37,142 bases of DNA, taken from Kiritimatiellia bacterium (GTDB lineage Bacteria > Verrucomicrobiota > Kiritimatiellia > RFP12 > UBA1067). Of this stretch, positions 6,675 through 25,722 are shown in pieces. The stretch covers positions 6,769 through 43,910 of the forward strand of contig JAGOBZ010000001.1 of assembly GCA_017999015.1 (NCBI GenBank), written 5' to 3'. Each line of letters opens with the position of its first letter. The first letter of the stretch is position 1. Below the pieces are notes generated by a model that made no database searches, was not told where the DNA came from, and was given only the letters and a program-made list of their open reading frames with translations. A program made the position numbers and the translations under genes.

Positions 6675-7469
6675 TCAGTCCCCTGCGTTGTATCGGTGGA
6701 GGTCGGCGTCCGAAATGGCACTTGCAGGAACCAAGGTGTAGTGCTTCTGATCGATCACGCGCACTTGGTCATCGTTTAGTGTTAGCTCGAACATCGCAAT
6801 GCGGTTGTCGCTGAGCGCATGGACTGAAACCGGACGGCAGATGAGATTGGGGAAACGTTCTCTGCAGAACAAAAGGTCTTGCTCCGTCTGAACGACACCG
6901 TGCTGATCCTTGCCGACTTTCGCCTGCACAGGAACAATGAATTGGCTGCCCCGCCGGTTGAGTCCGACATAAATTTCATCGATTTCGATCTGCCCAATGC
7001 TTTTTACGGTTGTGCGCAGGTGGTTCTGAAGAGAGTGCGCGGTAATACCGAGAAAAAGATCAATCAATCGGTTATACCGCACTTTTGCCAACAGGGCTTG
7101 TTCGTCATCAAAGGCGTTAGCAAGCAGAATTTCAGGTGTCGCGTTGGGCACTTTGATTGCCAACATCGTCTCGTCAGGTTCGATTCGGCTCATGTGCGCC
7201 TGCTTGAAAAGATAGCGTCCCGTGCCGGCACCTTTAATGATCCAAACCATACCCGGTCGGGCTGTCCGCGTGATCGATTCGGGCAGTGCAACCCGATAAC
7301 GGAATGAGTAGAGAACATCGCCTAATTTTTTCGGTAATTTGATGTTCAACTCCGATGCCGTGGCGGCAAGTTCTTCGCGTTCGAAAAGGAATTCGCTCTC
7401 GCCCGGTTTGTAATGCGAGAAGAAAATGCGCTCAATCAGCGCGGCATACCGGTTCAGAGATTTGCCCAT
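6675..7469 (-). CDS. putative type II restriction endonuclease (PD-(D/E)xK-like), partner of the adjacent C5 methyltransferase
   Basis: 264 aa ORF starting 14 nt downstream of the methyltransferase stop on the same strand. Shares the same reduced G+C (~47% in sampled lines). Contains IEIDEIYVGLNRRGSQFIVPVQAKVGKD, a D-x(n)-(E/Q)xK-like catalytic pattern. I cannot name the family by eye. Confidence 0.5.
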   Translation of the reverse strand: MGKSLNRYAALIERIFFSHYKPGESEFLFEREELAATASELNIKLPKKLGDVLYSFRYRVALPESITRTARPGMVWIIKGAGTGRYLFKQAHMSRIEPDETMLAIKVPNATPEILLANAFDDEQALLAKVRYNRLIDLFLGITAHSLQNHLRTTVKSIGQIEIDEIYVGLNRRGSQFIVPVQAKVGKDQHGVVQTEQDLLFCRERFPNLICRPVSVHALSDNRIAMFELTLNDDQVRVIDQKHYTLVPASAISDADLHRYNAGD

Positions 7470-7483
7470 GAGAGAACGATCTC

Positions 7484-9013
7484 CTATTTTCGTGTTCTTT
7501 GCCCGATTACCGAAGCAGGCACACCAAAGTGATCGGCAGCCTGACGCATGTTAAGGTTTAACAGTACGCCGTCACCCGGCGTGATCGCGACGTTCGGCTT
7601 TGACGGCTCAATCCCGAGAGCCTCGATGATTTTCCCAGCTATGGCATGTCCGAGAAGCGGCGGGACACTGTTTCCTATCTGGCGGAAACCGTGCCATTTG
7701 GTCACATGAAACCGGAACCAATCGGGATACGAGTGCAGGCGGGCAGCCTCGCGTACCGTAATGACACGCGGCCTCGTAGGATGGATCGGTCGCGGAGACG
7801 TAAATGCGCCACGCGCGCTGTCGGTGCCTGCACGGAGCGTGTTACACTGACCGGACAGCGACAACTTGAAGAACCGGCTGACCGGCTCCGTCGTGCCAGC
7901 GACCGCGTCGATAAAACGGGCCTTCGATTCCTTTGTGTGAACCGTCCGTAAACTGCACGTCAGCATGCCACGGTCGAACATTCGGGGATAGCTGAAATCG
8001 CCCAGATCGTCCATCAGCCCCCGCAACTTCTTGGCATAGTCTGTCTTTGTTTCCCATGTGACGTTTACGGCATCCGAATCCAATAACGCTTTGAAACGGT
8101 CAGCATCCGGCAAGTCCCCGATTGCTTCCGCTACGGTCACCTTGTCTGCTTGTGGTACCGGGTAGACAGGCGGCGGCTGGCCGCTACGATAGGCCATCAG
8201 AAAGAGACGGAAACGGTTCTGGGGCACACCATAGTCGGCGGCATTCAACACGCGGTAAGGTAAAACGACATGATACCCCGCGTTTTCCAATGCAGCGATC
8301 AACTCTTTAAGAAACTGCACATGCCTGCCAATGGTCAACCCTTTTACATTCTCGAAAACACAGTATTTCGGACGTAGTTCCGTAACCAGTCTGACGAAGT
8401 GCGAAACCAGCTTGTTCCGAGGGTCGTCCAGAGCCCTTTTCCCAATCATCGAGAAACCCTGACAGGGTGCGCCGCCGAACACCACGTCAATGTCGCGGTC
8501 GCCGATGTCGCAACGGCGGCGAATCGCGGATCCCGTCAAGGCCGTGACGCTCTCGCATATCGAGGCTGCATACGGAAAGTTGTACTCATGTGTCGCACAG
8601 TGGATCGGATCGATTTCAACACATGCGGCAATGTCAAACCCCGCCCCTTCAAATCCCAAGGAAAGACCGCCGGCTCCGGCGAACAGGTCAATCCCGATAG
8701 GGCGTCCGTTCACAACAGGTGAATACTTCCGTTCGCACGGCGGTAATGCAGTCGGCAAGTCTTGGCCAACCGGCCAAAACATGAACTGTCCCTGAACCAA
8801 CAAATTGGGATGCGTGTCGGAGGACAGCAGTTGGAACCCAGCCTTCTCGAACTCAGCGTGATACGTTAAGACATCTTCGCGGATGTGCTGAGGAAGATCA
8901 TTCGCCGAAAGCACACAACCATGATGGGTTTGAGCAAAATCCGACAGGTTTTTTTGGCGCGATTGAACGCGTTTCTTATTCTGCGAATACGTTGTGGGCT
9001 GCCTCTTAGTCAT
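7484..9013 (-). CDS. DNA (cytosine-5)-methyltransferase
   Basis: All canonical C5-MTase motifs occur in order: I IDLFAGAGGLSLGF, IV GGAPCQGFS, VI FENVKGL, VIII QNRFRLFLMA, IX RVITVREAARLHSYPDWFRF, X QIGNSVPPLL. The track ORF begins at a TTG (9052); the first ATG is at 9013 (MTKRQPTTYS...), so the start is uncertain. There is an N-terminal extension of ~100 aa before motif I. Confidence 0.9.
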   Translation of the reverse strand: MTKRQPTTYSQNKKRVQSRQKNLSDFAQTHHGCVLSANDLPQHIREDVLTYHAEFEKAGFQLLSSDTHPNLLVQGQFMFWPVGQDLPTALPPCERKYSPVVNGRPIGIDLFAGAGGLSLGFEGAGFDIAACVEIDPIHCATHEYNFPYAASICESVTALTGSAIRRRCDIGDRDIDVVFGGAPCQGFSMIGKRALDDPRNKLVSHFVRLVTELRPKYCVFENVKGLTIGRHVQFLKELIAALENAGYHVVLPYRVLNAADYGVPQNRFRLFLMAYRSGQPPPVYPVPQADKVTVAEAIGDLPDADRFKALLDSDAVNVTWETKTDYAKKLRGLMDDLGDFSYPRMFDRGMLTCSLRTVHTKESKARFIDAVAGTTEPVSRFFKLSLSGQCNTLRAGTDSARGAFTSPRPIHPTRPRVITVREAARLHSYPDWFRFHVTKWHGFRQIGNSVPPLLGHAIAGKIIEALGIEPSKPNVAITPGDGVLLNLNMRQAADHFGVPASVIGQRTRK

Positions 9014-9064
9014 TGCGTAGCGAGAATAACAATTATCGAGCCTGTCTTTCAAACCTGATCGCCA

Positions 9065-18683: not shown

Positions 18684-18721
18684 AGAAACGCCGGGTTTCT
18701 AGTACTCTGTATAGAATACTA
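18684..18721. terminator. candidate bidirectional terminator hairpins between convergent genes
   Basis: Two hairpins: agaaac-gccgg-gtttct (18684-18700) and tagtactct-gtat-agaatacta (18700-18721; 9 bp stem with one mismatch). They lie in the 61-nt gap between the CNNM operon end and the parA end. No strong T-tract. Confidence 0.35.
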
Positions 18722-19531
18722 TGCTTGTTCAGCCGCAGGGCGAGAGGTCGGCGCGGTGCGGCGCGCGAATTCCGCAGCAAAGGCGCGGTAGGCTTCCGCG
18801 CCGCGGCTGGAAGGATCGTAGAAGATGACCGGCTGTCCGAAGCTGGGCGCCTCGCTGATGCGCACGTTGCGCGGGATAACCGTGTCGTAGACCTTTTCAC
18901 CGAAGTGTGCGCGCACCTCCGTCACGACATCGGCCGCCAGACGTGTGCGGCCGTCGAACATCGTCATCAGGATGCCTTCGAGCTGCAGGTCCGCATTGAC
19001 GCCGTTGGTGCGGAGCTGTTCAATCAGCGAGGTGATCACGCTCAGGCCCTCCATGGCGTAATACTCGCATTGCATGGTGACCACGATGCCGTCGGCCGCC
19101 GCGAGCGAGGAGGTCATCAGGATGCCGAGCGAAGGCGGGCAGTCCAGCAGCACGTAGTCAAAGACACCGGCGGTGAGTACGCGGTCGAGCACGTTGCGGA
19201 CCACGGCCAAATGATTATCCTGACGCGCGATCTCGATCTCCGCGCCGGCCAGGTCAAGCTCGGCCGGAATGATGTTGATGCCCTCATACGGGGTGGCTTG
19301 GATGATATCGGCCACATCGGCCGCGCCCGTGAGCACCGGATAAAGGCTGAGGCCCGGCTGGCGCGGCAGCCCGAGCCCGCTGGTGGCGTTGGCCTGGGGG
19401 TCGAGGTCGATGACCAGAACCGTCTTCTGCATCCGGGAGAGCGCGGCCGCCAGGTTGACGACCGTGGTCGTTTTGCCGACGCCGCCTTTTTGGTTGGCGA
19501 TCGCGATGACGCGTGTGGCGCGAGTGCTCAT
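18719..19531 (-). CDS. parA: ParA/Soj-family ATPase
   Basis: 270 aa with the deviant Walker A IAIANQKGGVGKTTTVVNLA. Also has VLVIDLDPQANAT and the ParA-typical IPRNVRISEAPSFGQPVIFYDPSSRGAEAY. Start overlaps the leuD stop (ATGA at 19528-19531). No parB in the window. Confidence 0.85.
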   Translation of the reverse strand: MSTRATRVIAIANQKGGVGKTTTVVNLAAALSRMQKTVLVIDLDPQANATSGLGLPRQPGLSLYPVLTGAADVADIIQATPYEGINIIPAELDLAGAEIEIARQDNHLAVVRNVLDRVLTAGVFDYVLLDCPPSLGILMTSSLAAADGIVVTMQCEYYAMEGLSVITSLIEQLRTNGVNADLQLEGILMTMFDGRTRLAADVVTEVRAHFGEKVYDTVIPRNVRISEAPSFGQPVIFYDPSSRGAEAYRAFAAEFARRTAPTSRPAAEQA

Positions 19532-20076
19532 TTTTTGATCATCCCGATCTCGCGGGCGTAGGCGAACATGCCGCCGGCTGCGATGACCGGCGCGACCGCG
19601 CCGACCGGTTTCAAAGTGAAAGCTTTGCCGTCCGACAGGCGGGTGATGGTGTTTTTTTCAATGTCGATCTCCGCCAGGTCTCCGGTCTTGAACTCGCCGC
19701 ACAAACGCTTCTCCGATTCGAGCGGGAAGATCTCGCCGGTGGCCACGGAATTGCGGAAGAAGATGCGGGCGTAGCTCTCGGCCACAACCGCCTTGGCGCC
19801 GGCGGCGCCGAGCGCGATCGGTGCGTGCTCGCGCGAGGAACCGCAGCCGAAATTGCGTCCGCCGATAACGATCGCATAGGGCGTGGTGCCGTCCGGGTTC
19901 GAGACGAACTTCGGGAAGGAGTCGGGCAGCCCCGCGAGTGCGTAAGAGCCAAGCTTACGGTACTCCTCCGGGATCGTGGGCACGAGGTTCAGATAGCACG
20001 CCGGGATCAGCAGGTCCGTGTCGATATTGTCTTCGAGCACGTAGACCGGGCCGCGGATAAGGGTGTCTTTAGGCAT
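19528..20076 (-). CDS. leuD: 3-isopropylmalate dehydratase small subunit (aconitase-family swivel domain, short archaeal-type)
   Basis: 182 aa: VYVLEDNIDTDLLIPACYL...IVIGGRNFGCGSSREHAPIALGAAGAKAVVAESYARIFFRNS. This is a typical LeuD/HacB pattern with the GSSREHA motif. Confidence 0.85.
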   Translation of the reverse strand: MPKDTLIRGPVYVLEDNIDTDLLIPACYLNLVPTIPEEYRKLGSYALAGLPDSFPKFVSNPDGTTPYAIVIGGRNFGCGSSREHAPIALGAAGAKAVVAESYARIFFRNSVATGEIFPLESEKRLCGEFKTGDLAEIDIEKNTITRLSDGKAFTLKPVGAVAPVIAAGGMFAYAREIGMIKK

Positions 20077-20093
20077 GATTGAGTCCTCTTCTT

Positions 20094-20711
20094 TCAGGCA
20101 AGTTGGCAGACATCATAGTCAGAAAAATGCCATAGTTCAAAACCATAGGTTGAGATGCCTTTGGTCAACTGACTATTTGTGACCCTTCTTCCGCAACCGG
20201 AGGTTATTTTCGCTGGGCGATTAAATGCCGTAACAACCGTTTGCGTTGGCGCAGGGGACGGAGGTGTTTTGCGAAAGTAGCAACAGCGTTTCGAGGAAAA
20301 CGGATCCGCAAACAGGCGTACACCGGACACGTTAAACAAATGCTCAAGGGTTTTACGCAATTGGCGGGTCTTCACCCCGGATGAAGTTGTTACCTTCATT
20401 TCAACAAGGCAGAAGACCCGATTGCTGTCGTCGTAGATAATGAAATCACACTGTTCGGGATACGGCGGAGGAATAGACCGGACATAATCACCAAACTTCA
20501 GACAGTGGATACGCAATGCGCTCAAATTATCAAAATTAGCCGTTTCGTGCCGGCTATTCTTGACAATCGGAGAGGCATAAGACGTTGTTCGACTCTGCGG
20601 GTCGTTCAAGCCGAACGAGGGACAAGTAATTATCACACAACGGTCTGATTCTGATAACGTCGCCTGCGACCAAGGCGCGACCGCAGAAAGTATTGAGGAA
20701 ATCGCGCTCAC
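20094..20711 (-). CDS. hypothetical protein with PD-(D/E)xK-like motif (candidate nuclease effector of the low-GC cassette)
   Basis: 205 aa. GTG start overlaps the ATPase stop (GTGA at 20708-20711). Low G+C. Contains SRHETANF ... CDFIIYDDSNRVFCLVEMKV, i.e. E...D-x14-E-x-K with hydrophobic beta-strand context. No other motif recognised. Confidence 0.6.
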   Translation of the reverse strand: MSAISSILSAVAPWSQATLSESDRCVIITCPSFGLNDPQSRTTSYASPIVKNSRHETANFDNLSALRIHCLKFGDYVRSIPPPYPEQCDFIIYDDSNRVFCLVEMKVTTSSGVKTRQLRKTLEHLFNVSGVRLFADPFSSKRCCYFRKTPPSPAPTQTVVTAFNRPAKITSGCGRRVTNSQLTKGISTYGFELWHFSDYDVCQLA

Positions 20712-21961
20712 GTCAGTTCCTCATACCGGTTGTAAATGACATTAATTGCGTCTGAAAGCGCGTTCGTGTCAATCAGACGATTGTCCGCCATCTTCAAATC
20801 ATCAATCCCGCCATCAGTCACATGATATGCAGCGATCTTGTCAAAGTCCAAACGAGCACCGTTTGTGAACTCGGTGTTGTTCGTGTCGTGTGCCTTGATG
20901 AGAAGGTTTAAATGGTTGAGAATGTAGGGGCTGTGCGTTGTCATCATGAAACGAATGGGATTCCGATCCTCGCCCGAGCCTAATACAATCAGACGGTTCA
21001 ATAGGTCGCATTGTGCGTTAGGGAAAAGGCCGAGTTCTGGTTCTTCAACATGAAAAAAAATGCGCTTGGAGAGTGTGTCAGTGTCTGAGATTGGTCTGAA
21101 CTCGGTTAACTTGCCTAAATCTGAGACGGTAGAAAGCAACGCCCGATTAAATGACCCGGTCAAGTCAAGATCGTTAGCAAAATATGACGCAAGCAATAAT
21201 ATGGGTACCGTGTTTTGGATACCGGAAGAACTGTGCGTAAAATCTATTTGGTATTGGGCCCCGTCTAAATTGGATACGCGATGCTTCCATCCGAATGGGG
21301 TGGATTCTGCCGAGAACCGAACATCGAGAAAATCGACATCTAACGCCTCCCGCGTTGCGCAGGCGCGCTCGAAATCCTCAACCATCTCCTCAAAATGCGC
21401 TTCAAACGCCGGTCGCCGTCCTTTGCTTTTAAGCAAAAAGGGCAAGAATCCTCGTGTTTCCGTGATATAGGAGAGCTTACTGTAAGAAATCCCGCCGACT
21501 GGGATATCACCCCTTGTATCTAATTTTTTGTCGCGATACTGAATCACAAAAGGTTGAGAGACGCCATCGAAATAAACGGAATATTGAATACTGGTATTGT
21601 TGGCAACAAATTCCGACAATCCCGCGTATTCTAGATGCTTGTCCATGCCGAGACGAAACGGCGATTTGGTGATCCTGCTGGCTTGAAGGTACGTGCGGAA
21701 ATTTAATCGTTTGAAGAGCCATCGGAACAGAGCGATGGCTTTCATGAGTGCACTTTTCCCCCCCGCTGATTCGCCGATAAAGACAGTGAACGGCTTAATG
21801 TCGCCAATCTTAACCTCTCTCACTGGGCCAAGATTACGAATGCATATTTCTTCCCTGATAATGTCCGTCTTCAGGATATCCTCGGGGGAAGTAAGAATCT
21901 GAGTCGGAGAAGACGTGAGAACCGTTCCGTCCACGTCATTTCTGTTGATGTGGCCGTTCAT
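20708..21961 (-). CDS. ABC-type / AAA_15-AAA_21-like ATPase (defense-associated ATPase family)
   Basis: 417 aa. Motifs: Walker A FIGESAGGKSALMKAI; signature-like HSSSGIQN; Walker B plus D-loop RIFFHVEEPELGLFP (matches the hhhhDEPExxLHP pattern of AAA_15/21 proteins); H-loop MMTTHSPYIL. ATG overlaps the upstream stop (ATGA at 21958-21961). Low G+C. Confidence 0.8.
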   Translation of the reverse strand: MNGHINRNDVDGTVLTSSPTQILTSPEDILKTDIIREEICIRNLGPVREVKIGDIKPFTVFIGESAGGKSALMKAIALFRWLFKRLNFRTYLQASRITKSPFRLGMDKHLEYAGLSEFVANNTSIQYSVYFDGVSQPFVIQYRDKKLDTRGDIPVGGISYSKLSYITETRGFLPFLLKSKGRRPAFEAHFEEMVEDFERACATREALDVDFLDVRFSAESTPFGWKHRVSNLDGAQYQIDFTHSSSGIQNTVPILLLASYFANDLDLTGSFNRALLSTVSDLGKLTEFRPISDTDTLSKRIFFHVEEPELGLFPNAQCDLLNRLIVLGSGEDRNPIRFMMTTHSPYILNHLNLLIKAHDTNNTEFTNGARLDFDKIAAYHVTDGGIDDLKMADNRLIDTNALSDAINVIYNRYEELT

Positions 21962-22284
21962 TGTTTTTGCTCGTTCAAACTCGAGTTGTTTGCCTGAGTG
22001 TTAAGCAAACCCAACATGCCAACTGAATGCTGGCTTGTGAACCCACATTGGTTGCAGATTAACGCTACAAGGGGCAGGAAACCATCACTAGCTCGCACAT
22101 GGCCGACACGGTTAACCTCGATTTGGTTCTGGACCAAAGGCTTGACGTAACTATCCACCAACGTCCATTCTTTGTTACCGCACATCGGACACGCCCTTGG
22201 CACGCCCCGTTCGCGAAGGCGGTCAACTATCTCCTGTTTTCGCTCTTGGGAGAGTCCTTGATTATTGGTAAGTTTTTCGTTCAT
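21958..22284 (-). CDS. small zinc-ribbon protein (CxxC...CxxC), first gene of the low-GC cassette
   Basis: 108 aa: CPMCGNKEWTL ... 41 residues ... CNQCGFTSQH. Has a basic/helical N-terminus (LSQERKQEIVDRLRERG) and an Asn/Gln-rich tail. An AGGGA RBS lies 4 nt before the ATG. Begins 46 nt after the leuC stop. Confidence 0.65.
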   Translation of the reverse strand: MNEKLTNNQGLSQERKQEIVDRLRERGVPRACPMCGNKEWTLVDSYVKPLVQNQIEVNRVGHVRASDGFLPLVALICNQCGFTSQHSVGMLGLLNTQANNSSLNEQKQ

Positions 22285-22330
22285 CGCGTCCCTGATGTCC
22301 GTAGATGAAGCAATTAAATCAGTGTCGAAA

Positions 22331-23620
22331 TCACACGTCGCGCGGGTCGGTGATATGGCCGGTGAGGGCGCTGGCGGCCGCAGTGTAGGGCGAGGCCAGG
22401 TAGACCTGCGAGTCTTTCGAACCCATGCGGCCGATGAAGTTGCGGTTCGTCGTGCTGACCACGACCTCCTTGCCGTGGGTGCGTCCGAAGGTGTCGATCG
22501 GGCCGCCCAGGCAGGCCGCGCAAGAAGGCGGCGCGATCGGATCGACGCCGGCCGCCTCGAAAATGTGTCTCAGGCTCTGGCCGTCGATGCGGGTTTCATC
22601 AAGTCCGCTTTCGACCTGGCGCGTGGCCGGCACGAGCAGCGTGCGGACCGCGACACGGCGGCCCTTCATGATTCGCGCCGCCATGATGAAATCCTCCAGC
22701 TTGCCGCCGGTGCAGGAGCCGATGTAGACCTGGTCGACTTTCACGTCGCGGCAAGAGCGCGCCAGTGCTTTGTTGTCGGGCAAATGCGGGCGGGCCACGA
22801 CCGGTTCAAGCGTCGAAACATCGTAACGGTGTTCGGCCTGAATGTGTGCGTCGGGGTCACTGTAGAGCGGTTCGAACGGTTTGGCCGTGCGGGCCTTCAC
22901 ATAGGCATAGGTCTTGGCGTCGGGCGCGATGATGCCGTTCTTGGCGCCGGCTTCGACCGCCATGTTACAGATGGTGCAGCGCTCTTCGATGCTGAGTGCC
23001 TCAATTGCTGCGCCCGTGAACTCCATCGCGCAGTAGGTGGCGCCGTCCACGCCGATGTCTCCGATGATATGCAGGATCAAGTCTTTGGCCGACAAGTAGT
23101 CCGGCATCTCGCCGTCCAGCACGAAGCGCAGTGTGGGCGGAACTTTGACCAGCAGTTTGCCGGTTCCCATGATGAAGCCTGCATCGGTGTTGCCGATGCC
23201 GGTCGAGAAGGCACCCAGCGCGCCGTGCGTGCAGGTGTGCGAATCGGTGCCGAAGATCGTCGCGCCCGGCAGCACGTGGCCGAGTTCGGGAAGGGCCACA
23301 TGGCAGACACCGCAATAGCTGTCGGTGCCGGGATCGTAGAAATAGGGCAACCCTTGCTCTTTAACGAAGTCGCGCAGGATATCCACATTGCGGTGCGCTT
23401 TTTCATCGGCCGTGAAGATGTAGTGGTCCGGCAGAATGACGATTTTTTCGCGGTCGAAAACCTTGGCATCTTTGCCGAATTCGCGCTGAAAGATGCCGAT
23501 CGTGCCGGGACCGCAGACGTCGTGCGTCAGAAGGATGCCGGCGTTGACCCAGATATTGTCACCGGGGGAAACCAGAGAGGCGCCCGACTCGCGCGCCAAG
23601 ATTTTTTCTGTAATGGTCAT
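22331..23620 (-). CDS. leuC: 3-isopropylmalate dehydratase large subunit (aconitase family, short archaeal-type)
   Basis: Start placed at the ATG at 23620 (MTITEKILARESG...). Contains GTDSHTCTHGALGAFSTGIG, YIGSCTGG, SCAACLG and STTNRNFIGRMG (Fe-S ligands and aconitase motifs). The track ORF start at 23674 would overlap the upstream gene. Confidence 0.9.
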   Translation of the reverse strand: MTITEKILARESGASLVSPGDNIWVNAGILLTHDVCGPGTIGIFQREFGKDAKVFDREKIVILPDHYIFTADEKAHRNVDILRDFVKEQGLPYFYDPGTDSYCGVCHVALPELGHVLPGATIFGTDSHTCTHGALGAFSTGIGNTDAGFIMGTGKLLVKVPPTLRFVLDGEMPDYLSAKDLILHIIGDIGVDGATYCAMEFTGAAIEALSIEERCTICNMAVEAGAKNGIIAPDAKTYAYVKARTAKPFEPLYSDPDAHIQAEHRYDVSTLEPVVARPHLPDNKALARSCRDVKVDQVYIGSCTGGKLEDFIMAARIMKGRRVAVRTLLVPATRQVESGLDETRIDGQSLRHIFEAAGVDPIAPPSCAACLGGPIDTFGRTHGKEVVVSTTNRNFIGRMGSKDSQVYLASPYTAAASALTGHITDPRDV

Positions 23621-23627
23621 AGCGGTA

Positions 23628-24326
23628 TCAACGTTTTTGGATAAGTTCGAAGAATCTGTCCTGAAAGCGTTCAAAAAGCCCGTGGTCGTGCAAGAGCTTG
23701 CCGAGCGGCTTGATCAGGCTCGCGTCTTTAGAGGCGGCTTGAAACCCCTTTTCGATCTCGTCGCGCAGCCCTGACGGCAGGCCGTCCTGCAGCTCGAAAA
23801 GACGGCGTTCGTGAAGCTCGCGGATGTTGGCCTGTGCAGAGTTTTGTATCACGGTCCAAAAGAGTCGCACAAGGCAGACGTCCCAAGGGTCGTCCACACC
23901 TTTGACCACTGCGGCGAACGGGTCGTTCTTGGTTGCGGCCTCACGCGCCACACGCTCCAGCACGGCTTCGGGCGTATCGGTCAGAACCTGCTCGCTGAAG
24001 GCTTCCTGCTTGAGGGTGTAACCATAGCGCAGGATGCGCACCGAATCCTCATGTTCCTTGAGCCACTCCAGGTATTGCTGCGCCTGCTCGCCAAACCCTT
24101 CGAGCATGGTCGATGAGTAGGCGGAGGGCGTGATGATCTGGGGCCGCAGCGCTTGCATGCGCCCCTCGCGAACGCGGACCTTGCCCACCGCGTCCATCAA
24201 CTCACTGATGAGGTAGTAGTTGATAATGGTGTTGCCGAAGGTTTCGAGATGACGTTTGGGCGGCATCACGATCTCCGTGTTGTTGACGGCAAACCAGAAA
24301 TCAAATTGTGTCGGTCTTTTACTCAT
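23628..24326 (-). CDS. conserved hypothetical protein
   Basis: About 232 aa from the ATG at 24326 (MSKRPTQFDFWFAVNN...). Native G+C and strong GC3 bias. The stop lies 7 nt before the leuC start, so it is probably co-transcribed. No recognisable motif. Confidence 0.6.
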   Translation of the reverse strand: MSKRPTQFDFWFAVNNTEIVMPPKRHLETFGNTIINYYLISELMDAVGKVRVREGRMQALRPQIITPSAYSSTMLEGFGEQAQQYLEWLKEHEDSVRILRYGYTLKQEAFSEQVLTDTPEAVLERVAREAATKNDPFAAVVKGVDDPWDVCLVRLFWTVIQNSAQANIRELHERRLFELQDGLPSGLRDEIEKGFQAASKDASLIKPLGKLLHDHGLFERFQDRFFELIQKR

Positions 24327-24409
24327 GGAAGAGAGGCAACTATAACATGAAAAACGGCACTCTGTCACGGCCGAGAAAAAAATTAGACTGTCCCCTCATT
24401 GGGCACGGA

Positions 24410-25470: not shown

Positions 25471-25722
25471 CTATGCAATGTGGCCAAAATTAGAATTGCT
25501 GGGCAGACGGGTAGTGTTTCGGCCGCGGTCCTCGATGAAGAGGCTGGACTGGACGAACATGCCGCCGGAGCCGCAGGCGGGATCGAAGACGGCGCCGTGG
25601 TCGGGCTCGACGATGTTGACGATGGTCTGCACGAGAGAGGGCGGTGTGAAGAACTCGCCGTTGTCCTGAGCGCCCTGCATGGCGAACAGCCGATTATTGT
25701 CGCTTGTGGCCCCGAGAATCTT
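25471..25722 (-). pseudogene. remnant of a type I restriction-modification N6-adenine methylase (HsdM-like), truncated at both ends
   Basis: Minus-strand frame reads ...[53 protein letters not shown]... This matches the HsdM GEFYTP and AdoMet motif I (DPACGSGG) region. Only ~80 codons remain of a normally ~500-aa protein. An in-frame stop lies upstream and the downstream motifs are lost. Confidence 0.7.

Follow-up and report, generated by a model that had tools for sequence, protein, structure and literature searches.

Why do three genes stand between leuC and leuD, the genes for one enzyme's large subunit and small subunit? The question is raised by a 37,142-nt stretch of DNA from a Kiritimatiellia bacterium (contig JAGOBZ010000001.1 of assembly GCA_017999015.1, positions 6,769 to 43,910; hereafter the window), in which a minus-strand operon of the order hyp-leuC-leuD-parA holds a three-gene cassette between its leuC and leuD genes. 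The explanation that we consider moderately probable is that the cassette is a horizontally acquired, promoterless defence-candidate module of three translationally coupled genes, lying in a recurrent operon-embedded hotspot.

Between the leuC stop (22331) and the leuD start (20076) lie 2,254 nt (20077-22330). Non-coding DNA accounts for 46 nt (22285-22330) and 17 nt (20077-20093) of this interval, and three overlapping minus-strand genes take up the rest: c108 (21958-22284), the first gene, encoding a 108-aa zinc-ribbon protein with invariant cysteines; c417 (20708-21961), encoding a 417-aa ABC-type ATPase of the AAA_15/AAA_21 class with intact motifs; and c205 (20094-20711), encoding a 205-aa predicted PD-(D/E)xK nuclease, the putative effector partner of the ATPase. 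Successive cassette genes overlap by 4 nt (ATGA at 21958-21961 and GTGA at 20708-20711), as do leuD and parA. An initial annotation, made from the letters and their open reading frames (ORFs), had given the length of the interval and its two non-coding remnants and had called the junctions tight or overlapping; these coordinates and figures are all correct against the ORF list. Judged by its sequence, the cassette is a new three-gene variant of the candidate family PDC-M29: c417 matches the PDC-M29A profile, and c205 belongs to a family related to PDC-M29B.

The insert is of foreign origin. Its GC content is 0.478, against 0.615 ± 0.029 across non-overlapping segments of the same 2,254-nt length (z = -4.7), and of all stretches of this length in the 37 kb, the one with the lowest GC content begins at 20066, only 11 nt off the cassette edge. 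At both cassette ends the step in GC content completes within about 100 nt. GC content at third codon positions (GC3) is 0.51-0.56 in the cassette compared with 0.74-0.83 in the four operon genes, while the share of ATC among isoleucine codons falls from 0.87 in host genes to 0.38 in the cassette, and that of CGC among arginine codons from 0.74 to 0.25. The initial annotation had proposed a foreign insert and had named a GC and codon profile as a means of checking it; the computed profile does show a discontinuity, with GC, GC3 and codon usage all deviating, and the closest relatives hold true empty sites.

Relatives were drawn from a LeuC-based scan with one genome per species, which assigned the window to Kiritimatiellia, inside the Planctomycetes-Verrucomicrobia-Chlamydiae (PVC) group, and yielded 80 LeuC loci. 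In the seven closest (L001-L007; LeuC 81-93% identical to that of the window), the order is hyp-leuC-leuD-parA throughout, with a leuC-leuD spacer of 22-174 nt and no cassette, and none of the 80 loci holds any of the three cassette genes. The nearest hosts of all, L001 and L002 (hyp 94%, LeuC 92-93% and ParA 95% identical), are both empty, with a 54-nt spacer. Since the relatives' spacers cannot be aligned with one another, or with the 46-nt upstream spacer of the window (22285-22330, minus strand), the endpoints of the insertion are bracketed to the 46-nt and 17-nt remnants, the upstream boundary falling somewhere inside the former. The 17-nt downstream junction (20077-20093, minus strand) carries the leuD ribosome-binding site AAGAGGA, and a similar site at the same spacing is found in empty-site relatives. 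Aligning the leuC-leuD junction of relatives, as the initial annotation had suggested, thus delivered the empty sites, while exact boundaries could only be bracketed and no target duplication was visible.

Some spacers in empty relatives are enlarged. Those of L003 (5610-5783) and L005 (7300-7470), both close relatives, measure 171-174 nt with a GC content of 0.45-0.53 against 0.68-0.69 in their flanks, and that of L003 includes a perfect inverted repeat of 10 bp, GATTAGGATT...AATCCTAATC. No module sequence resembles either spacer. When AT-rich spacers of increased length in empty relatives (L003, L005, L016 and others) were searched for module remnants, matches stayed at chance level, and the idea that such spacers are leftovers of a deleted module was dropped for this reason.

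The junctions themselves are sound. Records of the exact c417 protein exist for more than 20 contigs in JGI, ENA, NCBI and Logan assemblies, and ten of these contigs, coming from different samples and assemblers, were retrieved for comparison. All ten have the same gene order, and across the full 5.7-kb operon their identity to the window is 99.84-99.97%, with zero indels. The few single-nucleotide polymorphisms among them leave all three cassette genes intact, and divergent gene calls in the records (a 75-aa zinc-ribbon ORF; a last gene of 143 or 171 aa) are differences between gene callers, not mutations. Identical junctions in ten independent contigs refute an assembly artefact. One public record of the exact c417 protein (P0001) is labelled "Betaproteobacteria bacterium ADurb.Bin341"; its flanking genes place the contig in Kiritimatiellia, and the label is probably a binning error in the source metagenome-assembled genome (MAG). 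A metagenome scan with the ATPase returned only two short fragments, both of the same population.

Is the cassette a single odd insertion, as the initial annotation had it? The genomic contexts of 12 module variants, the window's own included, were looked up in metagenome assemblies, and in many Kiritimatiellia this operon proved to contain related modules, at three different junctions. A zinc-ribbon-ATPase-nuclease module lies between leuC and leuD in L091 (P0003; ATPase 77% identical to that of the window), L100 (P0005; about 70-71%) and L094/L095 (P0008; 61%). In L103 (P0015; about 47-49%), the module begins 1 nt past the leuC stop, with no leuD within 6 kb downstream. Between leuD and parA lie the modules of L101 (P0013; 46-47%) and L108 (P0014; 47%), in each of which the ATPase start overlaps the leuD stop, and that of L096/L097 (P0023; about 44-49%). 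The module of L109 (P0012; 48%) begins 9 nt past the hyp stop on a contig that ends inside the module. One further module from the PVC group, that of L107 (P0018), is of the PVC type in a different operon, where it lies co-directionally, flanked by an ABC-permease gene and a GH3 glycosidase gene at junctions of 20-30 nt; two Bacteroidota-type modules (P0016 in L106 and P0020 in Capnocytophaga, L104) stand in unrelated contexts.

Overall, nine of the ten PVC-hosted modules examined lie in the hyp-leuC-leuD-parA operon, after hyp, leuC or leuD. All ten are co-directional with their neighbours, and their upstream gaps, where measured, range from a 4-nt overlap to 65 nt. The modules found in the operon have ATPase identities of 42-77%, and module GC content is 0.1-0.2 below that of the neighbouring genes in every host, an AT-rich host among them. 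An ancient, lineage-typical arrangement of native composition, which the initial annotation had named as the finding that would overturn its view, is not what we see: the occupants are recurrent but patchy, and compositionally foreign. We therefore regard the hyp-leuCD-parA operon of Kiritimatiellia as an operon-embedded hotspot that this module family has occupied repeatedly.

The leuC-leuD spacer is moreover permissive for cargo, since in other PVC genomes it also takes unrelated genes. Two more distant PVC relatives carry 23S_rRNA_IVP four-helix-bundle genes there (L011, 7315-7701, 1.3e-14; L032, 1414-1722, a weak match), and in a Planctomycetia MAG (L066, 7291-9330) the spacer holds a 2-kb insert with a truncated PemK/MazF toxin gene and other small ORFs. 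In the Kiritimatiellota MAG represented by L094 (4862-7253) and L095 (4781-7194), the leuC-leuD gap that houses the module has in addition roughly 1 kb of repeated REP-like palindromes, GCATCCC(G/T)TAGGGATGC, together with a RAYT-like Y1 transposase gene, an ankyrin-repeat gene and, as called in L095, a nuclease-like DUF1016 gene. This spacer has thus accumulated several unrelated elements.

What do the three genes encode? The c417 protein matches the Pfam families AAA_15 and AAA_21, and its best PADLOC match is PDC-M29A (E = 1.6e-39), residues 38-366 aligning with profile positions 3-336 of 410. Partial matches extend to AriA (4.1e-18), HEC-02A (3.2e-9), the retron Eco8 effector (7.1e-9), GajA (1e-8) and PtuA (5.5e-6), and further to Old and HEC-01A. 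The Walker A motif (residues 63-70, G63-x4-GKS70), a signature-like SSGxQ (245-249), the Walker B motif (301-309, with HxEEPE at 304-309) and the H-loop (341-345) are all intact, their core residues being 98-100% conserved among 60 homologues. With all four motifs present and conserved, c417 falls within the ABC-type ATPase class (AAA_15/AAA_21) that includes the OLD, Gabija, Septu and PARIS proteins. The description of the insert as defence-like in the initial annotation is borne out by the PDC-M29A match of c417 and by matches of the partner family to PDC-M29B.

The c205 protein itself has no family in Pfam or NCBIfam and no PADLOC match at E <= 0.1, PDC-M29B included. The partners of all related modules, those of Bacteroidota among them, nevertheless align with it, and PDC-M29B is matched by six of 16 family members (PDLC04563, best 3.8e-9), three of the family matching PDLC04564. 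Ten positions are invariant in all 16 sequences (D37, A58, N62, C88, D89, E104, Q117, L122, C143 and F146) and K106 is at least 90% conserved; in a set of 11 sequences, D89, E104 and K106 are all invariant. An AlphaFold (AF2) model of c205 (pLDDT 89, pTM 0.86) places D89 at the start of one strand (90-94) and E104 and K106 in another (99-107), followed by a helix (116-125), which is the canonical PD-(D/E)xK arrangement. Conservation and model therefore agree on a D...(D/E)xK motif on adjacent strands. The top neighbours of the model in the PDB, weak matches throughout, are mostly PD-(D/E)xK enzymes (the DdmD nuclease domain, N.BspD6I, McrC, SdaI, Hjc, HincII, FAN1 and Bax1), and its neighbours among the viral structures of BFVD are similarly rich in such enzymes, none of them significant. 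A profile search of PDB sequences with the c205 family found no match. Some c205 homologues weakly match HSDR_N_2 (0.015) and SduA_C (0.15) in Pfam, both of which we take to be PD-(D/E)xK nuclease domains, and one family member matches HEC-02B at 0.0016. On the strength of motif and model, we predict that c205 is a PD-(D/E)xK nuclease. An exhaustive profile search sized its family at about 200 clusters at 50% identity, nearly all of them proteins of about 200 aa or shorter fragments.

The zinc-ribbon accessory protein c108 is new. It combines an N-terminal helix with a CPMC...CxxC zinc ribbon in which C32, C35, C77 and C80 are invariant, has an AF2 model of modest confidence (pLDDT 62.8), and matches no family in Pfam, NCBIfam or PADLOC searches. 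There are only a handful of homologues, and all those that can be placed lie directly upstream of ATPases of the same subclade. The ATPases of this three-gene subclade carry an N-terminal extension of about 35 aa that is absent from two-gene modules, as seen in tblastn alignments that begin at residues 30-37.

How might such a tightly packed cassette be expressed? The best sigma-70-like promoter match, GTGACA-18-TATAGT with a TG element, lies just upstream of hyp (24339-24368, minus strand) and is a candidate operon promoter; it agrees with 10 of 12 consensus positions and is the strongest such match in the 7-kb region, although it rests on a consensus, from which the promoters of PVC bacteria may depart. 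Promoter-like sites number six against 3.3 ± 1.7 expected from shuffled sequence, which is no difference, and a consensus scan found no terminator-like site at either cassette junction. A match at 20140-20112, in the 3' end of c205, was considered as a leuD promoter and set aside because it is not conserved in L091, where TATGAT is replaced by CAACGA. The initial annotation had seen no obvious room for a dedicated promoter or terminator. With packing so tight, with all ten PVC loci co-directional and with upstream gaps of at most 65 nt where measured, the simplest model is that transcription reads through from the operon promoter and that translation is coupled.

The cassette bears few marks of the way in which it arrived. 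Flanking direct or inverted repeats at its ends do not rise above chance, the DNA at its ends folds no more stably than shuffled sequence (z = +0.4 to +1.5) and forms no hairpins or attC-like structure, no tRNA or Rfam element occurs in the window, and gene and Pfam tables covering about 6 kb to each side list neither an integrase nor a transposase. Searches of phage and plasmid records and of IMG/VR viral contigs found no relatives of the module apart from one 28%-identical plasmid match. The absence of mobility genes, terminal repeats and target-site duplications reported in the initial annotation was thus reproduced by the repeat, fold and gene-table searches. An IS200/IS605 element or an integron cassette was considered and rejected: the ends lack subterminal hairpins and attC, no Y1 or IntI gene lies within about 6 kb, and just 17 nt follow the last gene.

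Scarless cargo of this kind has a precedent in the core defence hotspots of Pseudomonas aeruginosa, which have conserved core flanks, lower GC content and no mobile-element signature, and for which recombination through the flanks has been proposed (PMC10250203). The features of such hotspots recur at the operon of the window, with conserved flanks, variable or absent cargo, lower GC content and no mobile-element hallmarks. Most plausibly, then, the module would spread between relatives by homologous recombination through the conserved flanking genes, a route that leaves no scars and that fits the exchange of filled and empty alleles between close relatives.

Does the module follow its hosts? 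We compared a bootstrapped neighbour-joining tree of the modules with identity matrices of the hosts. The carrier host closest to the window by LeuC is L101 (90%), yet its ATPase is only 46-47% identical and its module occupies another junction; the most distant host, L100 (LeuC 74%, hyp 65%), has an ATPase about 70-71% and a zinc-ribbon protein 67% identical to those of the window, at the same junction. The hosts L094 and L103 are sisters (LeuC 91%), yet their modules are unrelated (45%). In the tree, the PVC modules form a single group with 100% support, divided into two subclades (97.5% and 97%) that each contain more than one junction type. A clade with the module of L100 in and that of L094 out has 74% bootstrap support, and the modules of L096 and L107 are sisters (100% bootstrap, 74% identical) in different loci. 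The nuclease partner has also been swapped relative to the ATPase: between the window and L100 the ATPases are 70% identical and the partners (20094-20711 in the window, 3595-4203 in L100) 33%, while the partners of L103 and L096 are 47-48% identical to c205, with ATPases about 44-49% identical to c417. These identities point to modular shuffling inside the system.

The nearest host relative is an empty-site genome for four of the six comparable carriers, the other two, L094 and L103, being nearest to each other. Together with the conflict between tree and identities, the swapped partner and the unameliorated GC3 of the modules, these empty nearest hosts argue for several independent gains or replacements. 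There are at least four junction states inside the operon, and vertical descent alone does not explain the distribution of the module.

Several other explanations have to be weighed against this reading. That a low-GC segment was misjoined to a high-GC contig during assembly or binning would suit the sharpness of the GC step, and the copy binned as Betaproteobacteria does show that binning is unreliable; with at least ten independently assembled contigs sharing identical, indel-free junctions, and with diverged versions of the module at the same place in other species, we give a chimera practically no chance. A more serious contender is an ancient resident that entered once in an ancestor, was inherited vertically and cleanly lost in most lineages, and was occasionally shuffled between junctions. 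Such a history would account for the 100%-supported split that sets all PVC modules on one side and the Bacteroidota-type modules on the other, for the concentration of nine of ten PVC modules in one operon, for the identical leuD/ATPase ATGA overlap that L101 and L108 share, and for the partial GC amelioration of the L100 module (GC3 0.66-0.69). It is hard to square with module GC3 values of 0.42-0.69 against 0.74-0.96 in the hosts despite divergence down to 42% identity, with the empty nearest hosts of four in six comparable carriers and the unrelated modules of L094 and L103, and with the lack of remnants in the enlarged spacers tested. Incongruent host and module identities (the clade excluding L094 at 74% bootstrap), the nuclease partner swapped against its ATPase (33% against 70%) and the move to a different operon in L107 tell in the same direction, and we judge a single ancient entry unlikely.

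The remaining alternatives make the module primarily selfish. In one, the nuclease would recognise and cut a conserved hyp-leuCD-parA sequence in module-free genomes, and repair from incoming DNA that bears the module would copy the promoterless module into the nearest junction. The architecture matches that of phage T4 mobE, a single promoterless HNH homing gene between nrdA and nrdB that is transcribed from upstream and lies in an endonuclease-insertion hotspot (PMC2790892), and homing would explain the varied junctions, the lack of repeats or an integrase, the patchiness and the very presence of a nuclease. We nonetheless consider it distinctly unlikely: the ABC-ATPase-plus-nuclease class is typical of defence systems, the Bacteroidota modules stand in unrelated contexts, no co-conversion tract could be shown when one was sought in LeuC, LeuD, ParA and hyp, donor and recipient DNA would often have to reside together, and unrelated cargo in the spacer fits a permissive site better than module-specific targeting. 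In the other, the module would be an addiction or toxin-antitoxin-like element with no defence role, retained because deletion risks damage to leuC or leuD or because its loss is toxic. Its embedding between essential genes suits this idea, a selfish benefit of embedding having been suggested (Payne et al., bioRxiv 10.1101/2024.01.29.577857), as do the toxin-antitoxin fragments in the same spacer of L066. Weighed against the absence of an antitoxin-like small partner of known family, an ATPase-nuclease architecture and PADLOC matches that point to defence candidates, and clean empty sites so common that loss is evidently tolerated, an addiction module appears very unlikely to us.

The preferred reading of an acquired defence-candidate module in a recurrent hotspot has difficulties of its own, which we set out together here. 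The sample is small, its 12 contexts coming from the top of one similarity list, and both PDC-M29 and the module of the window are defence candidates whose anti-phage role would follow by analogy. The window's own c205 fails to reach the PDC-M29B model at E <= 0.1, and none of its Foldseek matches is significant (best E = 0.1 in the PDB and 0.064 in BFVD). An internal cassette promoter may exist, since sigma-70-like matches occur in the AT-rich DNA of the cassette, one of them (20140-20112) lying 36 nt upstream of leuD. As to the route, recombination through the flanks cannot by itself create new junction types after hyp, leuC or leuD, and it is hard to see how it would work for a pair of hosts as remote from each other as L100 and the window are (LeuC 74%). 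A possible recombination tract shared by the window and L091, whose LeuD proteins are 96% identical, was dropped because its signal (13 sites against 4) consists mainly of L001-specific substitutions.

What we infer for an acquired module of this kind, namely a defence function, a sensing mechanism, read-through transcription and a recombination route, would run as follows. HEC-02, Septu, PARIS, Gabija and Lamassu are validated defence systems that pair an ABC ATPase with a nuclease. By analogy with them, the core of the module would be the PDC-M29-type pair of the c417 ATPase and the c205 nuclease, preceded by the lineage-specific zinc-ribbon protein c108; the ATPase would act as a sensor or scaffold that keeps the nuclease inactive until a phage cue frees or activates it, and c108 might serve as an adaptor or regulator pairing with the N-terminal extension of about 35 aa on the ATPase. 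Having no room for signals of its own, the module most likely relies for its transcription on the operon's promoter, upstream of hyp, and the leuD ribosome-binding site kept in the 17-nt junction would allow the essential downstream genes to stay expressed. The position between essential genes would shield the module from deletion, and the hotspot would have turned over by several independent gains or losses.

The neighbouring operon genes, all on the minus strand, bear on how the locus is to be named. The first, hyp (23628-24326; ORF open up to 24368), encodes a 232-aa protein with no family in Pfam or NCBIfam searches; it is conserved and kept syntenic with leuC-leuD-parA across Kiritimatiellia and Lentisphaerota-type genomes, with orthologues in L001-L024, and lies upstream of leuC in PVC relatives. 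The leuC gene (22331-23620) encodes the 429-aa large subunit of an aconitase-family dehydratase (PF00330, 2.2e-86), the start at 23620 being that of other gene callers in an ORF open to 23674. Its product scores 485 bits with NF001614 against a cut-off of 385. The 182-aa leuD product (19528-20076) is of the Aconitase_C family (PF00694, 2.1e-18) and exceeds the TIGR02087 cut-off (114.9 against 108.95 bits). The subfamily model TIGR01343 is passed as well; scores with the equivalog models TIGR02083, TIGR02084 and TIGR00170 stay below the cut-offs. From these profile scores, leuCD is a reasonable label at the subfamily level (LeuC/HacA type), short of equivalog-level proof of an isopropylmalate isomerase, and the products may have a homoaconitase or citramalate-pathway role. 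The last gene, parA (18719-19531), encodes a 270-aa ParA-like ATPase (AAA_31, 1.5e-53; CbiA).

Two other loci in the window may be of defence type. At 6675-9052 (minus strand), a gene for a 522-aa C-5 cytosine DNA methylase (PF00145, 2.1e-67) adjoins a 264-aa ORF without a family match, in DNA with a GC content of about 0.54 against 0.61; this is probably a type II restriction-modification pair, and would then be a second compositionally foreign defence-type locus of the window. An orphan ORF of 69 aa at 25471-25680 (minus strand), which every population contig retains, matches the N-6 DNA methylase family PF02384 (4.1e-15) at positions 22-76 of 311 only, and looks like the relic of a methyltransferase or restriction-modification gene.

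The locus is significant chiefly for its position. A defence-candidate module is nested here in a biosynthetic operon, between the subunit genes of one enzyme, and the same operon is reused at three junctions across the class, very few members of which have, to our knowledge, been cultured. Should a full census bear the pattern out, it would constitute an operon-embedded hotspot that island-based discovery would miss and a natural case of immune genes under the control of amino-acid biosynthesis, and it would raise the question of how DNA targets one operon without a recombinase or repeats. The compact family, with its roughly 200 partner clusters at 50% identity, is also a candidate for anti-phage activity. 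Were the homing account to be true instead, the module would be a cellular counterpart of the free-standing homing endonucleases of phages, and some "defence candidates" of this class would be primarily selfish.

Islands, hotspots between core genes and other defence operons are the places where defence genes are known to gather, and a module that sits within a housekeeping operon, at more than one junction, gives these hotspot and embedding themes a new variant. Among known systems, the closest to the module of the window is PDC-M29. The match of c417 to PDC-M29A is nearly full-length, and that of the c205 family is to PDC-M29B; their genes lie side by side in the same orientation and overlap, and the Bacteroidota relatives are plain two-gene modules. 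In contrast to PDC-M29, the window's c205 is too diverged to match the B profile, a zinc-ribbon gene and an ATPase extension of about 35 aa are added, and the module is nested in a housekeeping operon and not inside another defence system. The PDC series comprises 145 candidate systems predicted through "guilt by embedding" in other defence systems (Payne et al., bioRxiv 10.1101/2024.01.29.577857); no mention of PDC-M29 itself was found in the literature searched. The same work reports that HEC-02, an ABC ATPase with a NERD-type PD-(D/E)xK nuclease, is active in defence, proposes that such ATPases are sensors that activate associated effectors, and suggests that selection on the genes around it benefits an embedded system in a selfish way (Payne et al., bioRxiv 10.1101/2024.01.29.577857). 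The module of the window shares with HEC-02 the pairing of an ABC ATPase with a small nuclease of the PD-(D/E)xK superfamily, as predicted for c205, but the matches are weak and partial and no NERD domain was detected in c205.

Septu (PtuA/PtuB), PARIS (AriA/AriB), Gabija (GajA/GajB) and the OLD family follow the same general design of an AAA_15/AAA_21-class ATPase and a nuclease effector. The matches of c417 to these systems are limited to the P-loop and C-terminal motifs, however, and fall far below NCBIfam cut-offs. Their cognate effectors are the HNH protein PtuB in Septu, the Toprim protein AriB in PARIS, and a Toprim fusion with the GajB helicase in Gabija, whereas the effector of the window is a predicted PD-(D/E)xK nuclease and neither HNH nor Toprim, with no helicase; neither c205 nor c108 matched these cognate partners in Pfam, PADLOC or NCBIfam.

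As a place of insertion, the operon resembles the core defence hotspots in holding lower-GC, variable cargo between conserved genes, with content that differs between close relatives and no mobile-element hallmarks. It differs in scale and setting. The P. aeruginosa hotspots cDHS1 and cDHS2 are regions of 1-224 kb, with a median of 26 kb for cDHS1, beside non-coding RNA (PMC10250203), and they lie between separate core genes. Here the cargo is a single promoterless module of two or three genes, its junctions measure 0-65 nt, and it lies within one operon, between subunit genes, several junctions of the operon being used. T4 mobE is the architecturally closer analogue: there, too, a nuclease gene stands between the genes for an essential enzyme's large and small subunit, in an insertion-hotspot locus, with a patchy distribution among relatives. 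The difference is that mobE is a phage gene with demonstrated homing, whereas the module described here is a multi-gene ATPase-nuclease unit on a bacterial chromosome, known from its sequence.

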